The notes beneath the pieces were generated by a model. That model ran no database searches. It was not told where the DNA came from and saw only the letters and a list, made by a program, of their open reading frames with translations. 64,000 nucleotides of DNA from an uncultured Candidatus Saccharibacteria bacterium (GTDB lineage: Bacteria > Patescibacteriota > Minisyncoccia > Phycocordibacterales > UBA9973), in the NCBI GenBank assembly GCA_964596395.1, contig CAZQSY010000005.1, positions 1,628-65,627 of the forward strand. Direction: 5' to 3'. The translations under genes were made by a program, and so were the position numbers. Shown in pieces: positions 13,136 through 26,975 of the stretch (its first letter is position 1; each line of letters begins with the position of its first letter).

Positions 13136-16114
13136 TTACGCCAAAATATTTATAAGTCTGTTTTTTACGTAGATTGCTCTCTTTATAGGATTGCCAGCCA
13201 TGTGTTTTGCTACATTTTCATCGGCCAGCGCCTTGTTTTTTACTGTTTCTTCCGAATCGCCGGCGTTTACCAATATTTCCGAACGTACCTTGCCGTTTAC
13301 CTGCACGGCGATTTTTACTTCTTCGTCTTTGAGCAATTTTTCTTCCCACTTCGGCCATGGAGATAAATGTATACTTTTCTTTTCGCCAAGTTCATGCCAA
13401 ATATATTCTGTCACATACGGCGCGAAGGGAGCGAGAATTTGCAGAAATTTTTTGAAATCCTCCGTTGAAATATAATCTGCTTTATCCATTTCTCCGGCTA
13501 GCACCATCATAGCCGAAACAGCCGTGTTAAAACGCATGTTTTCAATATCTTCCGAGACTTTTTTGATGGTTTTATGAAGAAGTTTTGAAAGAGGGGAAGG
13601 CAAGGAATTTTTAAGAGTCGTGGGTTCCCTGCCCTCATGACTCCGAGGGCGAAGGCTCAGAAAATTCTTTGCATTCCCCTCTTTGACCTTTTGCCCGATT
13701 CGCCACACTTTTTCTATAAACCTGCGCGGGCCGATGATGCTCTCGGTACTCCAAACCGCCGCTTCTTCGAACGGGCCCATAAACATTTCGTACACGCGTA
13801 GAGTGTCCGCGCCGTAAGTTTTGATGATGTCGTCAGGATTCACCACATTACCTAAAGATTTAGACATTTTTACTCCCCCTTCGCCTAAAATCATTCCGTG
13901 CGAAGTCCGCTTCGCGTACGGTTCCGGCGTCGGCACCAGCTTAAGGTCATACAAAAACTTGTGCCAGAAACGCGAATACAGAAGGTGCAGTGTAGTATGT
14001 TCCATGCCTCCGTTGTACCAATCTACTCCGCCAGGACCCAACTTGGAAGTCCGACTTCCAAGTGACTTGCCAAGCCAATATTTTAAATTTTTCTTGCTTG
14101 CGAATTCTTTATTATTTTTCGGGTCGGTGTAGCGCAAATAATACCAGGAACTCCCGGCCCAGTTTGGCATTGTGTCTGTTTCTCTTTTAGCCGGGCCTTT
14201 GCACTTCGGGCATTTAGTGTTTACCCATTTTGAAATCGAAGCCAGTGGCGACTCGCCGGTATCTGTCGGCTTGTAGCTTTTCACTTCCGGCAATTTCACC
14301 GGCAAATCTTTTTCCGGCACAGGCACCCAGCCGGCATTCAACTTGGAAGTCCGACTTCCAAGCAAGTCCTTCTTCTGGCAATTTTCACAAAACACTAACG
14401 GTATCGGCTCGCCCCAATATCTCTGCCGCGAGAAAACCCAGTCGCGCAGTTTAAATTTGGTAACAATTTTGCCGTCCACAAAATCCGTTATTTTTTTCTT
14501 CGCTTCTTCGGAATTTAAGCCGTCAAACCTGCCGGAGTTTGCAAGAATACCTTCTCCCGCATAAATTTCTAAACCATTCTTAAAAGCCCGCCAATCTCTA
14601 AGCGCTGCTCCTTTTAAGACATTCTCTACCTCTTCCGGTAAAAGCCATTTGGGTTCATGTTTTTCTTTTTCTTCTTCCGATAACTCTATATGTTCACCAT
14701 TCTTCAATTCAAAATAAAGATGGTGAAAATGGGCAAAACGATTTTCTTTTTTCAGAACATGAAAAAACTTTTCGTGAGAACGATACAATTCTTTCACGAA
14801 CACAGGATTCAAGTACCCCGTTTCTTCTTTTATCTCTCTAATGGCCGACTTTACCGAGTCTTCCCCTTCTTCAATTCCCCCGGTTATGAAAGTTATCCAT
14901 CCTCCCTTCTTCCAAAACAAAATTAAATATTTATCAAGAGCCCAATGTTTGACAATCGCGTGCGTTGCATTCCTCTCTATAAACTGAAGCCCCTCCTTCG
15001 GCTTATCTTCTTCGCTGATAAAAATCGGTTCAATGACATTCTTGATTGGCAAATTGTATTTTTTCGCAAACTCGTTATCCCGTTCGTCGTGCGCCGGCAC
15101 AGCCATGATGGCGCCGGTGCCATATTCGGGTAATACATAATCCGCGATAAAAATCGGAATCTCCTCATTGTTTGCCGGATTTACCGCCTTTATTCCTTTG
15201 AGTTCAACGCCGGTTTTTTCTTTGCTCTCGGCTGTACGTTCCATTTCTGTTTTCGTTTTGTTCGCCAGGATGTACTGCCACACCTCGCTCCAGTTGGAAA
15301 TATTATGCCGGAGTTTTTGCACCACCTCGTGCTCGGGCGCCAGCACCAGATAAGTCGCGCCGAAAAGGGTATCCGCGCGAGTAGTGAAAACCTCTATGTC
15401 AAAGGGCACCTTTGACACTTTAAATTTAATCAACACGCCTTCAGACTTTCCTATCCAGTTCCTCTGCTGAATTTTTACCCGCTCCGGATAATCCACCAAA
15501 TCCAAATCCTTATCGAGCCGGTCGGCGTACTTGGTAATCGCGAGCATCCATTGCTCTTTTTCCCTTTTTTCCGTTTGGCTGCCGCAGCGTTCACAGACAC
15601 CCCCAACCGCTTCTTCGTTGGCAAGCCCGATTTTACATTTCGGGCACCAATTTATGTATGACTTCGCCTTGTACGCCAAACCTTTTTTGAAAAGCTGTAA
15701 AAATATCCACTGCGTCCACTTGTAATATTTCGGGTCAGTAGTGTTTATCTCGCGGGGCCAGTCAAAAGAAAAACCAAGTGATTTGAGCTGCCGGCGAAAA
15801 GTATCCGTATTTTTCTTTGTTACCAGCGCCGGCTTCTCCCCCGTTTTTATTGCGTAATTTTCAGTAGGCAGACCAAAAGCGTCCCATCCGATGGGATACA
15901 AGACATTCTGGCCTTCCATTCGCCTTTTTCTGGCGATGATATCCATCGCCGCGTAGCTCCGAATATGGCCGGTATGCAACCCGGCGCCCGAAGGATACGG
16001 AAATTCTACCAGCGGGTAAAACTTTTTCCCCTTATCTGTCGCTCGATAGATTTTTTTCTTTTCCCATTCCTTCCAAACTTTCGGCTCAATTTTTTGGTGG
16101 TCGTAATTTTTCAT
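13136..16114 (-). CDS. leuS: Leucyl-tRNA synthetase carrying an internal NUDIX domain and three small in-frame repeat-element insertions
   Basis: 992 aa. HIGH-type motif PYPSGAGLHTGH, CP1 editing domain TTRADTLFGATY, KMSKS (VKMSKSLGNVV). Extra segments: Nudix box GGIEEGEDSVKSAIREIKEETGY; two LGSRTSKL octapeptides encoded by a 23-bp palindrome; a ~24-aa segment KNFLSLRPRSHEGREPTTLKNSLP encoded by a 70-bp repeat. Confidence 0.95.
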   Translation of the reverse strand: MKNYDHQKIEPKVWKEWEKKKIYRATDKGKKFYPLVEFPYPSGAGLHTGHIRSYAAMDIIARKRRMEGQNVLYPIGWDAFGLPTENYAIKTGEKPALVTKKNTDTFRRQLKSLGFSFDWPREINTTDPKYYKWTQWIFLQLFKKGLAYKAKSYINWCPKCKIGLANEEAVGGVCERCGSQTEKREKEQWMLAITKYADRLDKDLDLVDYPERVKIQQRNWIGKSEGVLIKFKVSKVPFDIEVFTTRADTLFGATYLVLAPEHEVVQKLRHNISNWSEVWQYILANKTKTEMERTAESKEKTGVELKGIKAVNPANNEEIPIFIADYVLPEYGTGAIMAVPAHDERDNEFAKKYNLPIKNVIEPIFISEEDKPKEGLQFIERNATHAIVKHWALDKYLILFWKKGGWITFITGGIEEGEDSVKSAIREIKEETGYLNPVFVKELYRSHEKFFHVLKKENRFAHFHHLYFELKNGEHIELSEEEKEKHEPKWLLPEEVENVLKGAALRDWRAFKNGLEIYAGEGILANSGRFDGLNSEEAKKKITDFVDGKIVTKFKLRDWVFSRQRYWGEPIPLVFCENCQKKDLLGSRTSKLNAGWVPVPEKDLPVKLPEVKSYKPTDTGESPLASISKWVNTKCPKCKGPAKRETDTMPNWAGSSWYYLRYTDPKNNKEFASKKNLKYWLGKSLGSRTSKLGPGGVDWYNGGMEHTTLHLLYSRFWHKFLYDLKLVPTPEPYAKRTSHGMILGEGGVKMSKSLGNVVNPDDIIKTYGADTLRVYEMFMGPFEEAAVWSTESIIGPRRFIEKVWRIGQKVKEGNAKNFLSLRPRSHEGREPTTLKNSLPSPLSKLLHKTIKKVSEDIENMRFNTAVSAMMVLAGEMDKADYISTEDFKKFLQILAPFAPYVTEYIWHELGEKKSIHLSPWPKWEEKLLKDEEVKIAVQVNGKVRSEILVNAGDSEETVKNKALADENVAKHMAGNPIKRAIYVKNRLINILA
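13607..13673. repeat. Family-2 MITE-like element (~70 bp), copy 1, in-frame inside leuS
   Basis: ggaatttttaagagtcgtgggttccctgccctcatgactccgagggcgaaggctcagaaaattcttt. About 80% identical to 18100-18169. AGAATTTT-type terminal inverted repeats and a GC-rich core hairpin (gccctc...gagggc). Confidence 0.6.
14041..14063. repeat. REP-like 23-bp perfect palindrome (copy A), in-frame inside leuS
   Basis: ACTTGGAAGTCCGACTTCCAAGT; encodes LGSRTSKL on the leuS strand just before the conserved VDWY.GG.EH..LHLLY block. Confidence 0.8.
14341..14363. repeat. REP-like palindrome (copy B, 22/23), in-frame inside leuS
   Basis: ACTTGGAAGTCCGACTTCCAAGc, exactly 300 bp from copy A. Encodes a second LGSRTSKL just before the conserved VPVPEKDLPV block. 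Confidence 0.8.
14555..15025 (-). other. NUDIX hydrolase domain (~155 aa) inserted in LeuRS between the editing domain and the ZN/leucyl-specific region
   Basis: Nudix box G-x5-E-x7-REUxEExGU satisfied exactly by GGIEEGEDSVKSAIREIKEETGY (nt 14813-14881). Flanking residues NLPIKNVIEP and GILANSGRFDGL match contiguous E. coli LeuRS positions. Confidence 0.7.
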
Positions 16115-16125
16115 ACCCCTGCGGA

Positions 16126-17166
16126 TTATCTTGCCGGCTTAGGGTAAGGCGGATACATATCCTTGTCTATCGTCCTTTCGAAACACGTTCGGCCGGCTTC
16201 ATGGTCCCAGGATTCATTAACCCCACCCCCAGGATACGGGTAAGAAACCGCGACATCTTTTTCTGGATAACCCATCATAGGCACTGTCCTTCCTCCGCTA
16301 TATTCTCTCCAACCCTTCGGCATCGGCAAAGAGAAAGCGGCGCAAAGCTCAAAAGTAAGTTTCTTTGCATCTTTAACAGCGTATTCGTAAGCCATGCCCT
16401 TTTCAAACTCCGGGTCAACCGGCAAGCTGTAACCCGAAAGAGGGTTAGCCAGGTCAGAAAGTTTTTCGGGCAGTTTCTCTTTTTGCTGCCAGTAGTTTAT
16501 CACTTGATATTGCATATTCATAAGGTCGTTCACCCGCCGGTCGTCAAGACGGAGCTGTCTTTGTTTAAAAGGACTGCCCATTACGGTAAAGCTCCAGATA
16601 ATCACCAGCAAGACCAGCGCGCTCGACTTGATTGAGGCAGAAAGTCCGATGCCGACGCCGAAAACCTTTTCTTTCTTTTTGAGTTCAAAAATAAAATAAA
16701 AGCCCACATACAAAGCGACTATCAAAACCGCTGTTACTTTCAATATAAATCTCGTGGTTACTTCGCCCGAGATGAAGTACCTTATCAGGGCCACCAGGTC
16801 TACCGCCGCCACAATTGAAGACAGAAAAAGTATGACGTATATCACCCACCTTCGCACAATTTCATCGCCCGCTCCTATCACCCCCCTCCCGTACTTCTTC
16901 CAAAAACGAGAGACAATCAAAAAAACCGGAAAGAAAATAATGAGCGTGGCCAGCGCGAAGCGCATCCCTTCGTAATCGTAAACCGAGTATCCGTACTGGT
17001 AAGATGAATTCAAGACATCCGGGAAACGCTTGTTGAGCGTCTCAAAAACGAGATTAAGGAAAGATGTTACGGAAGTTATTAAAGTTATGAGTAATCCAAG
17101 AGACAGGAAAAAGAATCCCGCAGAAACCTTTTGCCTGACTGGCTGCAAAACTTGTTGTGTTTCCAT
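16126..17166 (-). CDS. hypothetical polytopic membrane protein
   Basis: 346 aa with several N-terminal TM segments and a C-terminal soluble region; no family recognised. Confidence 0.4.
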   Translation of the reverse strand: METQQVLQPVRQKVSAGFFFLSLGLLITLITSVTSFLNLVFETLNKRFPDVLNSSYQYGYSVYDYEGMRFALATLIIFFPVFLIVSRFWKKYGRGVIGAGDEIVRRWVIYVILFLSSIVAAVDLVALIRYFISGEVTTRFILKVTAVLIVALYVGFYFIFELKKKEKVFGVGIGLSASIKSSALVLLVIIWSFTVMGSPFKQRQLRLDDRRVNDLMNMQYQVINYWQQKEKLPEKLSDLANPLSGYSLPVDPEFEKGMAYEYAVKDAKKLTFELCAAFSLPMPKGWREYSGGRTVPMMGYPEKDVAVSYPYPGGGVNESWDHEAGRTCFERTIDKDMYPPYPKPAR

Positions 17167-17213
17167 AAGGAATAATATATCATATTTCCGCGAGTATATT
17201 AAGGTGCAAAAAT

Positions 17214-17585
17214 ATGGACAAGAAGTTTGACGATTTTTCTAAAAAAATAACAAGATGGATAGGGTCCCCTTCTTCTCTGATAATGCACTCTCTGTTTTTC
17301 GCGGGAATTTTTTTCCTGAAAATATTCGGGGTATCTTCCGACGAAATTCTCTTGATCCTCACCACGATTGTATCGCTCGAAGCGATTTACTTGTCGATTT
17401 TCATACAAATGACCGTAAACAGGCACACCAAAGAGCTCAAAGAGGTCTCTAAAGATGTTGAAGAAATCCAGGAAAGCGTGAGTGAAATAGAAGAAAGCGT
17501 GGAAGAAATTGAAGAAGATGTCGGGGACATTGTGGAAGATATCGAAGACGGAGACAAAACAAGAATCATCGAGAGCTCCAAATAG
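17214..17585 (+). CDS. DUF1003-family small membrane protein
   Basis: 123 aa. Two TM helices with ILTTIVSLEAIYLSIFIQMTVNRHTKE matching the DUF1003 core, followed by an acidic coiled-coil tail. Confidence 0.5.
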   Translation: MDKKFDDFSKKITRWIGSPSSLIMHSLFFAGIFFLKIFGVSSDEILLILTTIVSLEAIYLSIFIQMTVNRHTKELKEVSKDVEEIQESVSEIEESVEEIEEDVGDIVEDIEDGDKTRIIESSK

Positions 17586-18567
17586 CGGTATTGGCCAGCG
17601 GGACAAAACGACTGTTTGATTTTTCAAAAATACACAACTCGCCTGATTCGGTTTTACCGCCGAGTTCCCGCATCGCGTCTTCCAGCGCGTATCCTAAGGC
17701 GAGCGAAGAAGAATCGGTAGCGTAAGAAGTAAGTATTACAAAAAGAGGATTGTCGCTCAAGACTTTTCTAGCATACGCGAGGAGTTTCGGTAAATCTTTT
17801 TCTATCTTCCACACTTCTCCCTTCGGCCCGCGGCCGAATTTCGGCGGGTCCATCATCACGCATTCATACCTGTTGCCGCGCTTCACTTCTCTTTCCAAAA
17901 ATTTCAAAGCGTCGTCCAAAATAATGCGCATCGGCATTCCCCCAAGCCCGGAAATTTTTTGGTTCTCCTTTACCCATTCCAGTATCTGCTTTGAAGCATC
18001 CACATGCGTGACCTCCGCCCCAGCCCGCAGAGCAAACAAACTCGCCACTCCGGTGTAGCCGAACAAATTCAAGAATTTAATCTTGGGTTGCCTCGGGGAA
18101 GAATTTTTAAGAAACGTGTGGGTTCCCTGTCCTTTTGTCTCCGAGGGCGCAGTTTCAAGAAAATTCTTTCCCGAGGCAATCCCTTTTATTTTTTCTTCTA
18201 TAAAATCCCAATGGCTGGCCTGCTCGGGGAAAAAACCCAAGTGGCGAAAGGGCGTGGGGGAAGCGAAAAATTTTGTGCCCTTGTAATTCATTTCCCATTT
18301 TTTGAGCAAGGACTCCCCTTGCTCATTTTTACTCCTCATTTCCCAGCCACCTCTCGCACCATCCTTCCCCGCCAAAAATTTCCCATCCGCCTCTGCCCAT
18401 TCTTTTACAAAAGTTTTCTGCCATAGAGCGCTTTCATACGGCCGCGCGAAAGTATACGGCCCAAATCTCTCGAGCTTCTCCCCTCCGCCGGTATCTAACA
18501 ATTCATAATCCCGCCAGTCATCGGCGCAGAAAATTTTAATTTCTTTTTTCATTCTAATATTATGCAT
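17566..18567 (-). CDS. Class I SAM-dependent rRNA methyltransferase, RlmI/YccW-like (PF10672), with in-frame 70-bp element insertion
   Basis: LNLFGYTGVASL (motif I), DASK, MDPPKFG (RlmI DPPKF motif). Extra ~25 aa KNFLETAPSETKGQGTHTFLKNSSP just before motif I. The start is probably the internal ATG giving MKKEIKIF (18552). Confidence 0.7.
   Translation of the reverse strand: MHNIRMKKEIKIFCADDWRDYELLDTGGGEKLERFGPYTFARPYESALWQKTFVKEWAEADGKFLAGKDGARGGWEMRSKNEQGESLLKKWEMNYKGTKFFASPTPFRHLGFFPEQASHWDFIEEKIKGIASGKNFLETAPSETKGQGTHTFLKNSSPRQPKIKFLNLFGYTGVASLFALRAGAEVTHVDASKQILEWVKENQKISGLGGMPMRIILDDALKFLEREVKRGNRYECVMMDPPKFGRGPKGEVWKIEKDLPKLLAYARKVLSDNPLFVILTSYATDSSSLALGYALEDAMRELGGKTESGELCIFEKSNSRFVPLANTAIWSSR
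18100..18169. repeat. Family-2 MITE-like element (~70 bp), copy 2, in-frame inside the RlmI-like methyltransferase gene
   Basis: agaatttttaagaaacgtgtgggttccctgtccttttgtctccgagggcgcagtttcaagaaaattcttt aligns with 13607-13673. Confidence 0.6.
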
Positions 18568-18579
18568 AATGTTATAATG

Positions 18580-19569
18580 TCATATTAAGAACTCAATCAC
18601 ATCCCCATCCTTCACTATATATTCCCTCCCTTCGGTACGTACCAGGCCTTTCGCGCGGGCATTGGCGTAAGAGCCGGCGGTAAGCAAGTCTTGCCAGCCG
18701 ATTACTTCAGCGCGGATGAACTTTTCTTTGAAGTCGGTGTGAATGGCGGCGCCGGCCTCGGGAGCAGTGGAATTTTTCTTAATCGTCCAAGCTCTCGTCT
18801 CATCAACGCCCGTAGTGAAAAATGTTTCAAGCCCCAGGAGTTCGTAGCTCTTTTTTATGAGCTCGTCAAATCCTTTTTCAAAAACAGGGTCTATTTTTAC
18901 CGAAAGGCCTGAAATTTCTACCGGCAAGTTCTCGCTGGCTTCCGAGACATTCAGCACATAAAGCACCGGCTTTAAGGTAAGCAAGCCGAGTGATTTTATC
19001 TTCAGTTTTTCCTCCGGAGAAACCCCCGCTTCCGCGGCCATTTTCCCCTGTTCCAATTTCTCCTTCACCTTTTTCAAAACACTTTCCTCGGCCACCGCGG
19101 CCTTTTCCCCCCGCTTCACGTCTTTTTGCAAGTTTTCGATTCTTTTTGAAACGGTTTCCAGGTCGGCCAAGGCGAGTTCAAGATTTATCACTCCGATATC
19201 CTGCGCGGGGTCAACTTTGTTGGCGACATGAATTACCGAATTGTCTTGGAATGTCCGCACCACGTGCGCGATAGCGTCAACCTCGCGGATATTGGTGAGG
19301 AATTTGTTCCCCAGGCCCTCTCCCTTCGAAGCCCCGGCCACCAGGCCGGCGATATCCACAAATTCGACAACCGCTGGAATTGTCTTGGCCGATTTTGAAA
19401 ATTCTGAAAGCTTCCACAATCTTTCATCCGGCACAGGCACGATGCCGACCGAAGGGTCAATGGTGCAAAAAGGATAATTCTCAGCGGGCACGCTTTTTTT
19501 CGTCAGCGCGTTGAAAAGCGTGCTTTTCCCCACATTCGGCAGGCCGACGATTCCGATAGATAGCGACAT
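18580..19569 (-). CDS. ychF: Ribosome-binding ATPase YchF
   Basis: IGIVGLPNVGKSTLFNALTKK..ENYPFCTIDPSVGIVPVPDERL, FVDIAGLVAGASKGEGLGNKFLTNIRE, C-terminal TGS domain. Confidence 0.9.
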   Translation of the reverse strand: MSLSIGIVGLPNVGKSTLFNALTKKSVPAENYPFCTIDPSVGIVPVPDERLWKLSEFSKSAKTIPAVVEFVDIAGLVAGASKGEGLGNKFLTNIREVDAIAHVVRTFQDNSVIHVANKVDPAQDIGVINLELALADLETVSKRIENLQKDVKRGEKAAVAEESVLKKVKEKLEQGKMAAEAGVSPEEKLKIKSLGLLTLKPVLYVLNVSEASENLPVEISGLSVKIDPVFEKGFDELIKKSYELLGLETFFTTGVDETRAWTIKKNSTAPEAGAAIHTDFKEKFIRAEVIGWQDLLTAGSYANARAKGLVRTEGREYIVKDGDVIEFLI

Positions 19570-23036: not shown

Positions 23037-23471
23037 ATGGACTTTAAAAAACATCTCGAAATTTTCTTACGTAACCCCCACAAAAAAAAAGAGGAATCAA
23101 AAGTATTAGATTGGGGTAGTTTGAAACTAGGCCCAGCGCCAGAAAATTTTAATCTTCCAGAGAATTATCTTTACAATTACGGTGCAGCACTAAATTTTTT
23201 AGAAAGAAAGTGTGATAAAAGCTGGAGACAAAATGAGGAAACCGGCAACTGGGAGGGCAAATATAAAGATTGCAATGTGATACTTTTTCCACCGAGAGTT
23301 CCGGAGGAGTTAAGTGACGGGAGTAAAGCTTTTCTGGATGAAAAATTCATGCAAGGAAATTATTTTCCAATGCTTAAGCATAAGGGCGGTAGTCAGGAGG
23401 ATTTTTTTGAGCTGCTGAGTATGCTAAAGAAAGAAAAACGCGCACTTGTTGACTTTGAAGTTCCTGACTAG
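23037..23471 (+). CDS. hypothetical protein (inserted cargo between duplicated tktC 3' fragments)
   Basis: 144 aa, no recognisable family. Shares a local ILFPPR...KAF..(E/K)F motif with the 237-aa gene at 35007-35720. Confidence 0.4.
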   Translation: MDFKKHLEIFLRNPHKKKEESKVLDWGSLKLGPAPENFNLPENYLYNYGAALNFLERKCDKSWRQNEETGNWEGKYKDCNVILFPPRVPEELSDGSKAFLDEKFMQGNYFPMLKHKGGSQEDFFELLSMLKKEKRALVDFEVPD

Positions 23472-23618: not shown

Positions 23619-24620
23619 CTAAAATTTTTTTCTCGTTATAACTTGCAGAACAACCCTTTTAATATCAACTATGTCCATGTGGTAGTGTGCCAGAAGTTCG
23701 GCGGGTAAACCGGATTGGCCGAACTTGTTTTGTACGCCGACGAATTCAATAGGTACCGGATAATTTTGCGCTAGAACTTCTGCTACAGCCCCACCCATGC
23801 CTCCCCTTACCTGATGCTCTTCTACTGTCACAACGGCTTTGCATTCTTTGGCCAGAGCTATCACAGCTCCTTCATCTATCGGCGAAATCGAAGACAAATT
23901 CATAACTTTGGTTTTTATTCCCTCTTGCTCAAGCTCTTTCGCCGCAACTAGCGCGCGGTAAAGTAACGCGCCGGTGGCGATTATACCCGCATCTGCAAGT
24001 CCGGCATCAGGTAACCAGTAAATTTGCGCCCTGCCGACTTCAAAAGATGTCTCTTCGGTGGTGATAATCGGCGTCTTTTCGCGAGCCAAGCGTAAATATG
24101 CCGGTTTTCTTGTTTTTGCCAACGCGATTGTCGCCTTTTTCGCTTCTATCGCATCGCACGGAGAAATGACGTCCATATTCGGGAGCGCCCGCATCATGGC
24201 AATATCTTCGAGCGCCTGGTGACTGCCGCCGTCAGGGCCCACCGAGATGCCGGCATGGCTCCCAACAATTACCACCTTCCTATCATTGTATGCGATCGTC
24301 GTCCGTATCTGTTCCCAATTTCGCCCGGGCGAAAAAGTCGCGTACGAAGAACAAAAAGGAATTTTTCCCATTGCCGCCATACCCGAGGCCACCGTCACCA
24401 AGTTCTGTTCGGCCACGCCGATTTCTACAAATCTTTCGGGGAATTTTTCTTTGAACAAATGCATCTGGGTGGACTCTGTCAAGTCCGCGCAAAGCGCGAC
24501 GACATTGCCATCCGCCTCCCCCGCCTTGAGCAACCCTTCCCCGAAACCTTTGCGTATCGGCGCCTGCTCAACATCATTACTGAAAATTTTTGGATTTAAT
24601 TTTAATTCCGGGTTTAACAT
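23619..24620 (-). CDS. tktC: Transketolase, C-terminal subunit (pyrimidine-binding plus C-terminal domains)
   Basis: 333 aa. PIRKGFGEGL, FVEIGVAEQNLV, SHAGISVGPDGGSHQALEDIA. Confidence 0.9.
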   Translation of the reverse strand: MLNPELKLNPKIFSNDVEQAPIRKGFGEGLLKAGEADGNVVALCADLTESTQMHLFKEKFPERFVEIGVAEQNLVTVASGMAAMGKIPFCSSYATFSPGRNWEQIRTTIAYNDRKVVIVGSHAGISVGPDGGSHQALEDIAMMRALPNMDVISPCDAIEAKKATIALAKTRKPAYLRLAREKTPIITTEETSFEVGRAQIYWLPDAGLADAGIIATGALLYRALVAAKELEQEGIKTKVMNLSSISPIDEGAVIALAKECKAVVTVEEHQVRGGMGGAVAEVLAQNYPVPIEFVGVQNKFGQSGLPAELLAHYHMDIVDIKRVVLQVITRKKF

Positions 24621-24651
24621 TCCATATATTCTAACACGTCACTTTTTTTAT

Positions 24652-24674
24652 ACTTGGAAGTCCGACTTCCAAGT
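24652..24674. repeat. REP-like 23-bp palindrome (copy C), left boundary of the RAYT/SDR insertion; overlaps the putative RAYT promoter
   Basis: ACTTGGAAGTCCGACTTCCAAGT, 31 bp upstream of the tktC start. Its TTGGAA (24654-24659) lies 17 bp upstream of TGgTATAAT (24674-24682). Confidence 0.8.
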
Positions 24675-24682
24675 GGTATAAT

Positions 24683-25315
24683 TTGGCTATGAGGAAACAT
24701 AAATTCGTGGAGGGAGAATACTACCACATATATAACCGTGGAACAGAAAAAAGAAAAATAATCCTAGACGAATACGACCTAGACCGTTTTCTAGAAAGCA
24801 TGAAAGAGTTCAACACATTAGAACCTATAGGAAGTATTTACGAACAATCTTTCATAAAAAAGGAACTTGGAAGTCCGACTTCCAAGTCCAAACTGGTATC
24901 AATAATATCCTACTGCATAAACCCAAACCATTTTCATATGCTGATTACTCCCCTAGTAGAAAAGGGGATAGAAAAGTTTATGCAAAGAATTGGTGGTTAT
25001 ACTAAATATTTTAACGAAAAATATAAAAGAAACGGGGTTCTGTTTCAAGGTAAATTTAAATCAAAACATGTCTATACAGATAATAGATATTTGCTTCACT
25101 TAAGCGCTTACATAAACATGAACAACCGCAACCGACTTGGAAGTCCGACTTCCAAGTTGAGTAAATCGAGCTTGGAAGAATACACTAAAGGCGAAAAGGG
25201 TATCTGTAACATGGATATAGTCTTGGGTCAGTTTGAAAACGGAAAAGAGTATCTAAGGTTTTCTTTGGAATCCTGGCAAGATACGCAGGAAAGAAAAAAA
25301 GCTCTTGAAATGTAA
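24683..25315 (+). CDS. REP-associated tyrosine transposase (RAYT; IS200/IS605-like HUH-Y1), carrying two in-frame REP copies
   Basis: YYHIYNRG (cf. RAYT YHVTQRG), HUH motif NPNHFHMLITP (cf. SNHVHLLLTP), GGYTKYFNEKYKRNGVLFQGKFKSKHVYTDNRYLLHLSAYIN (cf. YTRYINRRYGRTGHLWQGRFKS...EYLLACSRYIELNP). The likely true start is the ATG at 24689. Confidence 0.75.
   Translation: MAMRKHKFVEGEYYHIYNRGTEKRKIILDEYDLDRFLESMKEFNTLEPIGSIYEQSFIKKELGSPTSKSKLVSIISYCINPNHFHMLITPLVEKGIEKFMQRIGGYTKYFNEKYKRNGVLFQGKFKSKHVYTDNRYLLHLSAYINMNNRNRLGSPTSKLSKSSLEEYTKGEKGICNMDIVLGQFENGKEYLRFSLESWQDTQERKKALEM
24865..24887. repeat. REP-like palindrome (copy D), in-frame inside the RAYT gene
   Basis: ACTTGGAAGTCCGACTTCCAAGT encoding ELGSPTSK. 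Confidence 0.8.
25135..25157. repeat. REP-like palindrome (copy E), in-frame inside the RAYT gene
   Basis: ACTTGGAAGTCCGACTTCCAAGT encoding RLGSPTSKL, near the RAYT C-terminus. Confidence 0.8.
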
Positions 25316-25337
25316 CTTAGTACTTCGATTACTAAGT
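25315..25337. repeat. Degenerate REP-like 23-bp hairpin (15/23 identity to the REP) at the convergent RAYT/SDR junction
   Basis: ACTTAGTACTTCGATTACTAAGT has an 8-bp stem and 7-nt loop. It overlaps the RAYT stop and could act as a bidirectional terminator. Confidence 0.45.
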
Positions 25338-25339
25338 AC

Positions 25340-26080
25340 TTAGGTATGATATCCCTCCTGTATCTTCCGACCTTTTTTCAATACAAATACTTTACCGGTA
25401 ACCGCTTTCTTGCTTATACACAAACGTATGACAAACTTCGCTATTGCCTCGGGTGCAACCGTGTCACCAAGGTACTGTGGAAAATATTTTTTGTAGGCTT
25501 CAGTTGCAGTGTCAGAAGGAGAAATACAATTCACGCTTATTTTTTTATTTTTGAGTTCTTCCGCTAATCCAACTGTTAAATCTTCAATCCCTCTCTTTGA
25601 GACAAAATAAGGCAACCAACCCTTAGCACCGTTTTCAAATGTACCGGATACATTTAAAATTTTTGACCCTACTGGCATTACAGGAATGAAAGCATGAGCC
25701 AGAAGTGTAGGAGCGATCAATCCGACACAATACGTGTCAACTATGACTTGAGGATTAAAAGTTTCAAAATCTTTATTGGCATATACTTCATTTGCACCAT
25801 GCCAAATACCCGCGACATTAATTAAAAAACTAACATCTTTGTTTAATTTTTTAATCTTTTTAATGGTTTTATTAATTGAATCTACTCTGCTTAAATCTGT
25901 AACAAAATGTACACTTTTTCCGCCAATATTCTTTATCAATTTATTAGTTTCCACCAATTTTTTCTTTGTTCGAGCGATAAGAATAACCTCGATCCCCTCT
26001 TTTGCCATGGCAACAGAAACAGCCTTGCCAATTCCTGTACTGGCACCTGTAATAATCGCTAACTTATTTTTAAATTTCAT
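25340..26080 (-). CDS. Short-chain dehydrogenase/reductase (SDR)
   Basis: MKFKNKLAIITGASTGIGKA (TGxxxGxG), NVAG, catalytic Y..K (YFVSK). The ORF-track N-terminal extension merely reads through REP copy F; the true start is the ATG at 26080. Confidence 0.8.
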   Translation of the reverse strand: MKFKNKLAIITGASTGIGKAVSVAMAKEGIEVILIARTKKKLVETNKLIKNIGGKSVHFVTDLSRVDSINKTIKKIKKLNKDVSFLINVAGIWHGANEVYANKDFETFNPQVIVDTYCVGLIAPTLLAHAFIPVMPVGSKILNVSGTFENGAKGWLPYFVSKRGIEDLTVGLAEELKNKKISVNCISPSDTATEAYKKYFPQYLGDTVAPEAIAKFVIRLCISKKAVTGKVFVLKKGRKIQEGYHT

Positions 26081-26090
26081 AAATCTAGTC

Positions 26091-26113
26091 ACTTGGAAGT
26101 CGGACTTCCAAGT
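26091..26113. repeat. REP-like palindrome (copy F, centre G = inverted orientation), right boundary of the RAYT/SDR insertion
   Basis: ACTTGGAAGTCGGACTTCCAAGT, 2 bp after the tktN stop and 10 bp before the SDR start. Confidence 0.8.
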
Positions 26114-26114
26114 A

Positions 26115-26975
26115 CTATTGATGCTCGCTTTTAATTTTGCCGCCCAAAGTGCGGAGCTCGGCGAGCGCCATTTCGGCTTCTTCTTTCGAAGGCGGTTTGC
26201 CGTGCCACTTGTAATCCCTTTCAAATTCTTTCACGCCTCTGCCCGGAATCGTATGCGCGATAATTACAGTCGGCTTTTCTTCTACAGATTGCGCTTCACT
26301 TACTGCTTGATTCAAAGCCATAAAATCATGCCCTGAAACTTCTATCACGTGCCAGTTAAAACTTTTCCATTTGTCCGCCAGCGGCTCAAGCGGCATGATG
26401 TTTTCGGTAAAGCCGTCTATCTGAATGTTGTTTCTGTCAACAACCGCGATTAAATTTCTCAACTTATTTTTCCCGGCAAACATAATCGCTTCCCAGGAAT
26501 TCCCTTCATCAAGCTCACCGTCAGACATGAAGCAATACACGAATCTGTCTCTGTCTTTGCCGTTCATTTTATCCGCCAAAGCCATGCCGGATGCCTGCGC
26601 GAGGCCCGAGCCGAGCGGCCCCGAAGAATTCTCGAGCCAGGGCATAAATTCCCGATGCGGGTGGCCCTGCAGGCGGCTGCCGAACTTGCGCAAAGTTGAA
26701 AGCTCTTCAAGGGGAAAATACCCTGCGTGCGCCATAGTCGCGTACAAAACTGGCGCTATGTGCCCGTTTGAGAGCACAAATCTGTCCCGCTCCTCCCAGG
26801 AAGGATTCTTCGGGTCATGTTTTAAGACGTGAAAATAAAAAAGGGCGAAAATATCGGCCATCCCGAGCGGCCCGGCCGTGTGCCCGCTCCCCGCTTCAAG
26901 GAGCATTTCAATTATGCTCTTTCTGATTTCGTTTGCTTTCTCCTCCAGAAATTTAATTTTCTCATCGGTCAACAT
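26115..26975 (-). CDS. tktN: Transketolase, N-terminal subunit (TPP-binding)
   Basis: 286 aa. SGHTAGPLGMADIFALFYFHVL, GHIAPVLYA, GPLGSGLAQASGMA, DGELDEGNSWEA. Confidence 0.9.
   Translation of the reverse strand: MLTDEKIKFLEEKANEIRKSIIEMLLEAGSGHTAGPLGMADIFALFYFHVLKHDPKNPSWEERDRFVLSNGHIAPVLYATMAHAGYFPLEELSTLRKFGSRLQGHPHREFMPWLENSSGPLGSGLAQASGMALADKMNGKDRDRFVYCFMSDGELDEGNSWEAIMFAGKNKLRNLIAVVDRNNIQIDGFTENIMPLEPLADKWKSFNWHVIEVSGHDFMALNQAVSEAQSVEEKPTVIIAHTIPGRGVKEFERDYKWHGKPPSKEEAEMALAELRTLGGKIKSEHQ

Follow-up and report, generated by a model that had tools for sequence, protein, structure and literature searches.

A RAYT/REP module with intragenic palindromes and an adjoining dehydrogenase gene in the split transketolase operon of a patescibacterial genome

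REP/RAYT systems are known from Enterobacteria and Pseudomonas, where a small gene for a Y1/HUH-type REP-associated tyrosine transposase (RAYT, or TnpA_REP) is flanked by a dispersed short palindrome, the repetitive extragenic palindrome (REP), or by REP doublets forming hairpins (REPINs) (PMC5581495, PMC3333891, PMC3479197). These flanking palindromes are described as extragenic (PMC5581495). Here we analyze a locus of similar architecture in an uncultured Candidatus Saccharibacteria bacterium (contig CAZQSY010000005.1, positions 1,628 to 65,627). The source genome is covered over this 64-kb stretch, hereafter the window, and copy counts are counts within it. Between tktN and tktC, the two halves of a split transketolase, lie a RAYT-like gene, a short-chain dehydrogenase/reductase (SDR) gene and several copies of a 23-nt palindrome. 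Four of the six full palindrome copies in the window stand in frame inside open reading frames (ORFs), two in the RAYT gene and two in the gene of leucyl-tRNA synthetase (LeuRS). On balance, we think it slightly more likely than not that patescibacterial RAYTs represent a distinct variant of the REP/RAYT systems, in which the hairpin occupies the transposase's own gene at four places (promoter, two coding sites and stop), evolves in concert within each genome and spreads in frame, free of stop codons, into essential genes such as that of LeuRS, and in which hairpin pairs may capture or admit genes such as the SDR. For the spacer itself we put forward, with confidence and doubt evenly matched, that it was built in two separate layers: a RAYT/REP module, and an SDR gained later in this lineage by way of the REP. 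The features of the spacer and its flanks are listed below; related loci and proteins are cited by L and P numbers.

23619-24620, minus strand: tktC, C-terminal half of the split transketolase (Pfam Transket_pyr, 5e-42; Transketolase_C, 1e-23), 75-82% identical to tktC of relatives
24628-24633, minus strand: candidate outward -10 box for tktC, reading TGtTAGAAT, 7 nt before the tktC ATG
24652-24674: REP1, perfect, 31 nt from the tktC start codon, at the same position in L001, L008, L010 and L139
24689-25315, plus strand: RAYT-like Y1/HUH transposase gene, 208 aa (Pfam Y1_Tnp, PF01797, E = 2e-8)
24865-24887: REP2, perfect, inside the RAYT coding sequence, translated LGSPTSK, in a low-confidence loop of the structure model (residues 50-67)
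25135-25157: REP3, perfect, inside the RAYT coding sequence, translated LGSPTSK, just after the helix of the catalytic Tyr
25315-25337: REP4, degenerate, overlapping the RAYT stop codon, ACTTAGTACTTCGATTACTAAGT, -4.3 kcal/mol
25340-26080, minus strand (as tktN and tktC): SDR gene, 246 aa, classical SDR (adh_short, E = 1.4e-33)
26091-26113: REP copy F, perfect, centre G, 10 nt from the SDR start and 1 nt from the tktN stop
26115-26975, minus strand: tktN, N-terminal half of the split transketolase (Pfam Transketolase_N, 9.5e-64)

The spacer occupies 24621-26114 (1494 bp) and contains a plus-strand Y1/HUH transposase ORF and a minus-strand SDR ORF, which converge, together with the palindrome copies. 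The C-terminus of tktN (...SEHQ*) is intact, as in relatives. The original prediction for this DNA had placed the tktN stop at 26115 and the tktC start at 24620, 1494 bp apart, and the features it described are all present to within 1 nt. Its REP copy C, 31 nt from the tktC start, is the palindrome at 24652-24674. The RAYT and convergent SDR that it named correspond to the Pfam Y1_Tnp (plus strand) and adh_short (minus strand) ORFs, and the degenerate REP hairpin that it recognized at their 3' junction is REP4 (25315-25337). It correctly put a REP, copy F, at the tktN stop (26091-26113), at a distance of 1 nt rather than the 2 nt given. REP2 and REP3, inside the RAYT frame, go unmentioned in its description. 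The inverse orientation ascribed to copy F did not hold up, as it rests on one freely variable centre base. The element is otherwise a perfect palindrome, and because this base, C or G, differs among copies of a single RAYT module in other genomes (L032, L034), it was rejected as a mark of orientation.

The REP is a 23-nt palindrome, perfect apart from the centre base, composed of ACTTGGAAGTC, a C or G, and GACTTCCAAGT. At up to 3 mismatches, six copies are found in the window (at 14041, 14341, 24652, 24865, 25135 and 26091), compared with 0 in 100 shuffles, and the perfect element folds as single-stranded DNA at -9.1 kcal/mol (z = -6). An exact 23-mer scan returned 42 stretches from Patescibacteria metagenome-assembled genomes, the genome of the window not among them, and 58 copies were analyzed for reading frame and flanks. 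No conserved flanking tetranucleotide, asymmetric motif or target duplication was found around these 58 oriented copies; their flanks share only a tendency to extend the palindrome. Single copies often have flanks that lengthen it by 3-10 nt, and in L014, L016, L017, L020, L022, L029, L031, L043, L045 and L050 the REP often occurs in overlapping inverted doublets, GGAAGTCGGACTTCC-ACTT-GGAAGTCCGACTTCC. These doublets and the palindrome-extending flanks hint at hairpin-templated insertion or growth. A half-arm of the REP, CTTGGAAG, also recurs at 25171-25178, 14 nt beyond REP3, in codons for the RAYT's conserved motif SSLEEY. This may be chance or the trace of a relationship between REP and gene.

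The RAYT family is very large in Patescibacteria, with more than 7800 matches, nearly all of 205-215 aa. The start of the window gene was set at the ATG at 24689 (MRKHKF...) by comparison with homologs, the alternative being a TTG at 24683. Residues H83, H85 and Y143, which form the HUH motif and the catalytic tyrosine, are invariant in the RAYT homolog alignment A1. Foldseek identifies 4er8_A, a complex of the E. coli RAYT with a REP hairpin, as the top match (E = 2.4e-3, low TM-score) of a RAYT structure model of moderate quality (predicted local distance difference test, pLDDT, 70.6), with the TnpA proteins of IS608 and ISDra2 as the next best. A profile of alignment A1 run against PDB sequences returned nothing at E <= 0.01.

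In function and architecture, the locus is closest to REP/RAYT systems. The flanking palindromes are in place, with REP1 upstream of the small Y1/HUH gene, REP4 at its stop and more copies at 14041, 14341 and 26091, and the same arrangement recurs in at least five related loci, each with variants of its own. As in the described systems, the transposase has diverged about as much as the neighbouring housekeeping genes, and the E. coli RAYT-REP complex 4er8 is its best structural match. The inverted doublets of other genomes resemble REPINs. Unlike the described systems, no 5' guide tetranucleotide (e.g., GTAG) accompanies the 58 REP copies, and the REPs are not extragenic, four of the six window copies being translated and two of these sitting at conserved sites within the RAYT. 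Copy number in the window is low, and related genomes hold several diverged RAYT paralogs with a REP of their own. There is no second RAYT copy in the window; the RAYT identities track those of the tkt genes, yet the gene is patchily distributed on the tkt tree and relatives hold several diverged paralogs. The module also resembles IS200 (IS200/IS605 family) in its length of ~0.7 kb, its one Y1 gene and the hairpins close to its two ends; terminal inverted repeats and an obvious target duplication are lacking in both. It differs from IS200 in that the window contains no multiple identical copies of the unit and no left-end target tetranucleotide is conserved, the sequence 5' of REP1 differing among the five loci. 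Furthermore, its end hairpins have the same sequence as the dispersed solo repeats, and the behaviour of the unit is that of a long-standing occupant of one locus.

REP1 coincides with the predicted promoter of the RAYT gene. A sigma-70-like scan of 24400-26300 found TTGGAA (24654), a 17-nt spacer and TGgTATAAT (24682), a match at 10 of 12 positions that is joint best in this range and the sole one with an extended -10 TG. The RAYT ATG follows only 6 nt after the -10 box, so the mRNA is probably leaderless; four relatives have the same promoter spacing. The left arm of REP1 is the -35 hexamer, and REP1 spans the -35 box and the spacer, so that RAYT binding there would repress the transposase's own gene. 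On the opposite strand, the candidate -10 box of tktC is conserved, reading TAGTATAAT or TATAAT 6 nt before the ATG in L008, L010 and L139. Such a TATAAT-like box would restore tktC expression after the split of the operon. REP2 and the T-run that follows it score as terminator-like on the tkt-sense strand.

Neither strand of the 23-mer contains a stop codon in any frame, and its translations in the three frames are LGSPTSK/LGSRTSK, TWKSDFQV and LEVRLPS/LEVGLPS. In other genomes, about half of the 58 REP copies are found in open frames of at least 150 aa, with all three frames used. Within the RAYT module the copies stand at fixed distances: from REP1 it is +213 to REP2, +270 to REP3 and about +180 to REP4 in the window and in L001, L008, L010 and L139, and L018 has four REP copies at similar spacing. 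The REP2 site is occupied by a genome-specific REP in L001, L008, L010, L012, L018 and L139. Copies inside the RAYT gene mostly share the variant of REP1 and REP4 of the same genome, as seen in the following variants.

Window: GGAAGTCCGACTTCC
L001 and L139: GGTACTCCGACTACC
L012: GGAAGCGAAACTTCC, in REP2 and REP4 only
L144 (the 49% identical paralog): GACAAGGTTTAACCTTGTC, before the gene, within it and at its stop
L060: AGACGGAAGCAAGGCTTCCGTCT, one of the copies lying within the RAYT reading frame

Two exceptions are L012, where REP1 belongs to another variant and REP3 was not found, and the window, in which REP4 carries an older variant. This REP4 is homologous in position and sequence to REP4 of L001, L008, L010 and L139 and is an older, degenerate variant that forms the 3' boundary hairpin of the RAYT module. 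Across 114 RAYT homologs, the peptides encoded at site 1 and site 2 co-vary, with a mean longest shared string of 4.12 against 2.78 +/- 0.09 for shuffled partners, a value reached in 0 of 500 shuffles. The three perfect copies of the window's module all depart from the variant of the relatives at one set of three positions, of which two are compensatory. This requires concerted evolution, whether by conversion or by re-insertion. Selection on the peptide was rejected as the sole source of the palindromes within the RAYT because, as DNA, they agree with REP1 and REP4, which are non-coding. The REP variant does not track the RAYT tree: L018, with a RAYT 60% identical to that of the window, has the window's variant, and L001 (81%) does not. 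Literature searches gave no account of REPs inside RAYT genes or in Patescibacteria, although absence there is no proof of novelty, and PMC6006769 makes no mention of intragenic copies or of Parcubacteria.

The two remaining translated copies are in the LeuRS gene (13136-16114, minus strand).

14041-14063: REP in frame, translated LGSRTSK, within a 14-aa insertion
14341-14363: REP with 1 mismatch, in frame, translated LGSRTSK, within a 15-aa insertion

The insertions read ...YWL-GKSLGSRTSKLGPG-GVDW... and ...CENC-QKKDLLGSRTSKLNA-GWVPVPE..., and neither occurs in Thermus thermophilus LeuRS or in most of 102 homologs from Patescibacteria. At the 15-aa site, an insert is shared by the two closest homologs only, with REP-variant peptides of their own (LGSRSTKFGTPTTKL and LGSRSTKL). 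The other site is hypervariable and carries other REP-derived peptides. These insertions recall the Rickettsia palindromic elements (RPEs), reportedly described by Ogata et al. in Science in 2000 as in-frame palindromic repeats in protein-coding genes, essential ones included. RPEs are about 100-150 bp long, and we know of no transposase dedicated to them. In both cases an in-frame palindrome adds a peptide without destroying the gene, here as the 14-aa and 15-aa inserts that are present or absent among LeuRS homologs. The REP differs from RPEs in being five times shorter, with a 23-nt core in inserts of 42-45 nt, in lacking stop codons in all six frames and in its link to a RAYT. Apart from the REP insertions, LeuRS has an insertion of ~140 aa with a NUDIX domain (PF00293, precomputed for P0241) at about 14585-15030 (residues about 363-516), where the T. 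thermophilus enzyme has only ~13 residues. It is common to most Patescibacteria homologs, some of which add DUF559/MTES_1575 domains. Another intragenic case is seen at L144:17082-17123, where a REP-like palindrome doublet, ACTTAGTAGTCGGACTACCAAGT with the partly overlapping AAGTGGTAATTCGACTACTAAGT, lies inside a conserved, LepA-like GTPase gene (16874-18721).

For the history of the spacer, the junction was compared among relatives. A metagenome scan with tktC gave 80 loci, and both tkt halves could be placed in 66 of them; gaps were measured between high-scoring segment pairs, and 24 junctions were inspected base by base. The tktN-tktC gap is at most 46 nt in 40 of the 66 loci. The distance from tktN stop to tktC start ranges from an 8-nt overlap to 34 nt in 20 of the 24 junctions read, with TAA-AAT-ATG as the whole junction in L072 and L087 and a 1-nt gap in L089. 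No REP remnant or scar was seen in any of the 24. The empty sites, which the original prediction had suggested looking for, thus exist, and with them its claim that the spacer is an insertion is upheld. Some of them (L076, L079, L064) are in loci that resemble the window as closely as the RAYT-bearing ones do.

The junction is a general insertion hotspot, because 18 other loci carry unrelated small genes there, on the tkt strand and in gaps of 225-976 bp. These inserts include a membrane protein, a toxin-antitoxin-like pair, a NUDIX-like protein, an HD-domain protein and four-helix-bundle proteins. In 7 loci the gap is 79-154 nt. A nineteenth large gap, in L134, is spurious: tktN was matched only in part, and the end of the gene itself lies in the gap. 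In three relatives the junction holds a conserved element of ~125 nt (L144:1303-1425, L070:1825-1953, L082:4850-5000) with inverted ends, TTTGAAATAT...ATATTTCAAA. Rfam gave nothing convincing for it (best E = 0.5), and it could be a miniature inverted-repeat transposable element or a small RNA of no known family. For the 64-kb window, Rfam reported no family at the gathering score, with tRNA, rRNA and riboswitches included in the search. Next to the split operon, between pfkB and tktC, the window has orf144 (23037-23471, plus strand; GC 37.9%, GC at third codon positions, GC3, 35%), for which no Pfam-independent NCBIfam match was obtained and pattern searches found no adjoining REP copy. pfkB and tktC are directly convergent in L008 and have two other genes between them in L010. 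orf144 is probably another lineage-specific insertion.

The same RAYT is found at the same junction, on the strand opposite to tkt and without the SDR, in four Patescibacteria lineages (L001, L008, L010 and L139). The homologs compare with the window RAYT as follows.

P0002: RAYT 82% identical to the window, L139-L143
P0003: RAYT 81% identical to the window, L001-L005
P0007: RAYT 78% identical to the window, L008 and L009
P0017: RAYT 75% identical to the window, L010 and L011

Across these lineages, identity to the window is 75-83% for RAYT, 75-79% for tktC and 79-83% for tktN. Pairwise RAYT identities parallel pairwise tkt identities, and DNA homology continues without a break from the start codon of tktC as far as the hairpin that follows the RAYT stop. 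The window RAYT has a GC content of 35.4% (GC3 38%), and the gene is AT-rich relative to its flanks in relatives too. L001 has an extra, unrelated 248-aa gene between tktC and RAYT. In relatives, REP4 abuts or overlaps the tktN stop. In L139, a 115-bp AT-rich spacer parts REP4 from tktN; REP4 is still beside the RAYT stop, and the tktN stop lacks a REP. This places the right end of the RAYT unit at 25337 rather than at copy F, with the SDR outside the unit, and copy F is likely an addition to the ancestral module.

Because the RAYT identities match those of the flanking tkt genes and DNA homology spans the whole segment, the insertion of the RAYT into the tktN-tktC junction fits a single origin. 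The phylogeny agrees less well with this. On a neighbour-joining tree of tktN and tktC with 200 bootstraps, the RAYT-bearing loci never group (0 of 200), and each has a closer empty-site relative. One insertion followed by vertical descent would therefore need repeated loss, or exchange by homologous recombination through the conserved flanks. Almost no clade of the tree is resolved at 50% or more, so the statement of non-monophyly is weak. Repeated insertion of the RAYT at the same junction could account for the distribution in place of a single origin.

RAYT modules of several kinds have colonized the junctions of this operon. Diverged paralogs (37-49% identical), each with a different REP, are present in neighbouring junctions of the pentose-phosphate operon.

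L144:2425-3185: RAYT paralog
L060:3219-3983: RAYT paralog
L082:2726-3461: RAYT paralog

L144 shares with the window the REP insertion in LeuRS and the gene order LeuRS...pfkB-tkt; its tktN-tktC junction holds only the 123-nt element, and a different RAYT paralog (49% identical) lies downstream of tktC. In L060, L067 and L082, other paralogs (37-47% identical) are found between rpe and tktN. One REP copy is again inside the coding sequence in the L144 and L060 paralogs.

The SDR has a different distribution from the RAYT. Its translation contains the TGASTGIG (TGxxxGxG) and YFVSK (YxxxK) motifs, no NCBIfam equivalog was reached, and it is identical to the database protein P0121. The nearest non-self homolog is 67% identical and has an SDR / dCMP deaminase / PNPOx / HhH-GPD context. 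In a collection of 5.8 billion proteins no SDR homolog exceeds 67% identity, compared with 75-85% for homologs of the neighbouring genes. The SDR has a GC content of 35.5% and a GC3 of 29%; tktN and tktC have 49.5% and 52-58%, respectively, for the two measures. The gene is absent from every related tkt locus, and the RAYT-SDR pair is absent from the 80 tktC loci, the four RAYT-only loci and the 42 REP-bearing loci. A phage link was dropped, as viral contigs contain neither the REP nor any SDR relative. Since the RAYT occurs without the SDR in four lineages, the two are not one mobile unit, and this comparison marks the SDR as a separate, lineage-specific addition. One gain of the SDR is far more parsimonious than at least four precise losses. 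The gene ends 2 nt from REP4 and starts 10 nt from copy F, which leaves no room for a promoter, so it is presumably read through from tktN. Copy F is unlikely to be a chance neighbour, given that only six full copies occur in 64 kb and three of the other five are in the RAYT module. From this geometry we infer, as the favoured route, that the SDR came in at a REP or by way of one.

In the two-layer scheme, the first layer would be a self-contained RAYT/REP module of about 24621-25337, lying antisense between tktN and tktC and consisting of an outward tktC promoter, REP1 over the RAYT promoter, a leaderless RAYT gene with REP2 and REP3, and REP4 at the stop. It would descend from one insertion that four or more further Patescibacteria lineages have in common with the window. 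The RAYT presumably binds the hairpin that the REP forms in single-stranded DNA and cleaves it, an activity that would spread the hairpin through the genome and keep its copies alike and that, acting on REP1, would dampen the RAYT gene itself. The second layer would be the SDR, a later gain confined to this lineage. It lies precisely in the interval from REP4 to the tktN stop, where it is bracketed by REP4 and the new copy F and oriented for read-through from tktN. Most likely it would have entered at a REP or by way of one, either through recombination or because the RAYT transferred strands from one REP hairpin to another. Integron cassettes offer an analogy only: there too, a promoterless gene is bracketed by hairpin recombination sites and expressed by read-through. 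Unlike integrons, the spacer ORFs show no IntI-type integrase and no attC structure is seen; the enzyme here is an HUH Y1 protein, and there is only one such "cassette," with mobility that is at most presumed.

Several observations weigh against this scheme. No precise cassette ends or target duplication could be defined for the SDR, and no second REP-gene-REP unit could be shown. None of the 17 junction inserts that were scanned has REP-like hairpins at its borders; genes can therefore enter the junction without REPs. The low-GC gene orf144 is close by and has no neighbouring REP. The RAYT is itself low in GC (GC3 38%), so that composition alone is no clock. Finally, with 22.8 bits against a cutoff of 80, the RAYT falls below the threshold of the NCBIfam family REP_Tyr_transpos (NF047646), which also sets it apart from the described REP/RAYT systems.

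The alternative that survives best, and to which we assign a minority but real chance, retains both layers and has the SDR enter independently of the REP, by illegitimate recombination or by homologous exchange via the tkt flanks, with copy F as a later, unrelated insertion into the tktN-SDR spacer. It draws on the 18 junctions of relatives with unrelated genes, on the 17 scanned gaps without REP-like border hairpins, on low-GC orf144 between pfkB and tktC with no REP adjoining it, and on the readiness with which REPs insert anywhere, including inside genes. What it leaves to coincidence is that REPs are sparse (six in 64 kb), yet the borders of the SDR are 2 and 10 nt from one. The extra DNA of L139, moreover, acquired no REP at the tktN stop.

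We consider it very unlikely that the 1.46 kb from copy C to copy F is one REP-bounded unit with the SDR as a passenger of the RAYT, as the original prediction proposed. Perfect REPs at both outer ends and the empty sites of relatives agree with such a unit, and this much of the proposal stands: the DNA is inserted, the RAYT is associated with REPs, and REPs are present at both ends. The joining of RAYT and SDR into a single unit does not, as the RAYT occurs without the SDR in four lineages with its own conserved terminal hairpin, REP4, the two genes were together in no other locus searched, SDR relatives are found in other contexts without a RAYT, and the centre-base "orientation" is uninformative. 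The finding that it had named as a sign of ancestral gene order, the SDR between tktN and tktC without RAYT or REP, was not made in relatives; the reverse was seen, a RAYT without SDR in the four lineages. Least credible of all is that RAYT and SDR are both ancestral in the junction and that the SDR was lost independently in the other RAYT-bearing lineages, since, even if the patchy junction content across the tree suggests that losses occur, this needs at least four independent precise losses, each leaving REP4 abutting the tktN stop, and fits poorly with an SDR GC3 of 29% against more than 50% in neighbouring genes and with the lack of any SDR homolog above 67% where the neighbours reach 75-85% in the 5.8-billion-protein collection.

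For this clade, the junction of the split transketolase is a recurrent landing place for small genes and RAYT modules, and genes that neighbour each other at this site should not be taken to be functionally linked. Being extragenic is part of the definition of a REP; in this system, coding copies of the hairpin are routine, both in the gene of its own transposase and in that of an essential aminoacyl-tRNA synthetase, and the positions of REP2 and REP3 are conserved across a RAYT family of thousands. The locus offers a system for studying the co-evolution of a hairpin repeat with its enzyme, the possible self-regulation or self-limitation of a transposase via sites in its own gene, and the remodelling of proteins by palindromes in the very small genomes of Patescibacteria. 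If our reading is true, "extragenic" palindromes would, in reduced genomes such as these, also give rise to insertions in proteins and perhaps to the gain of genes.

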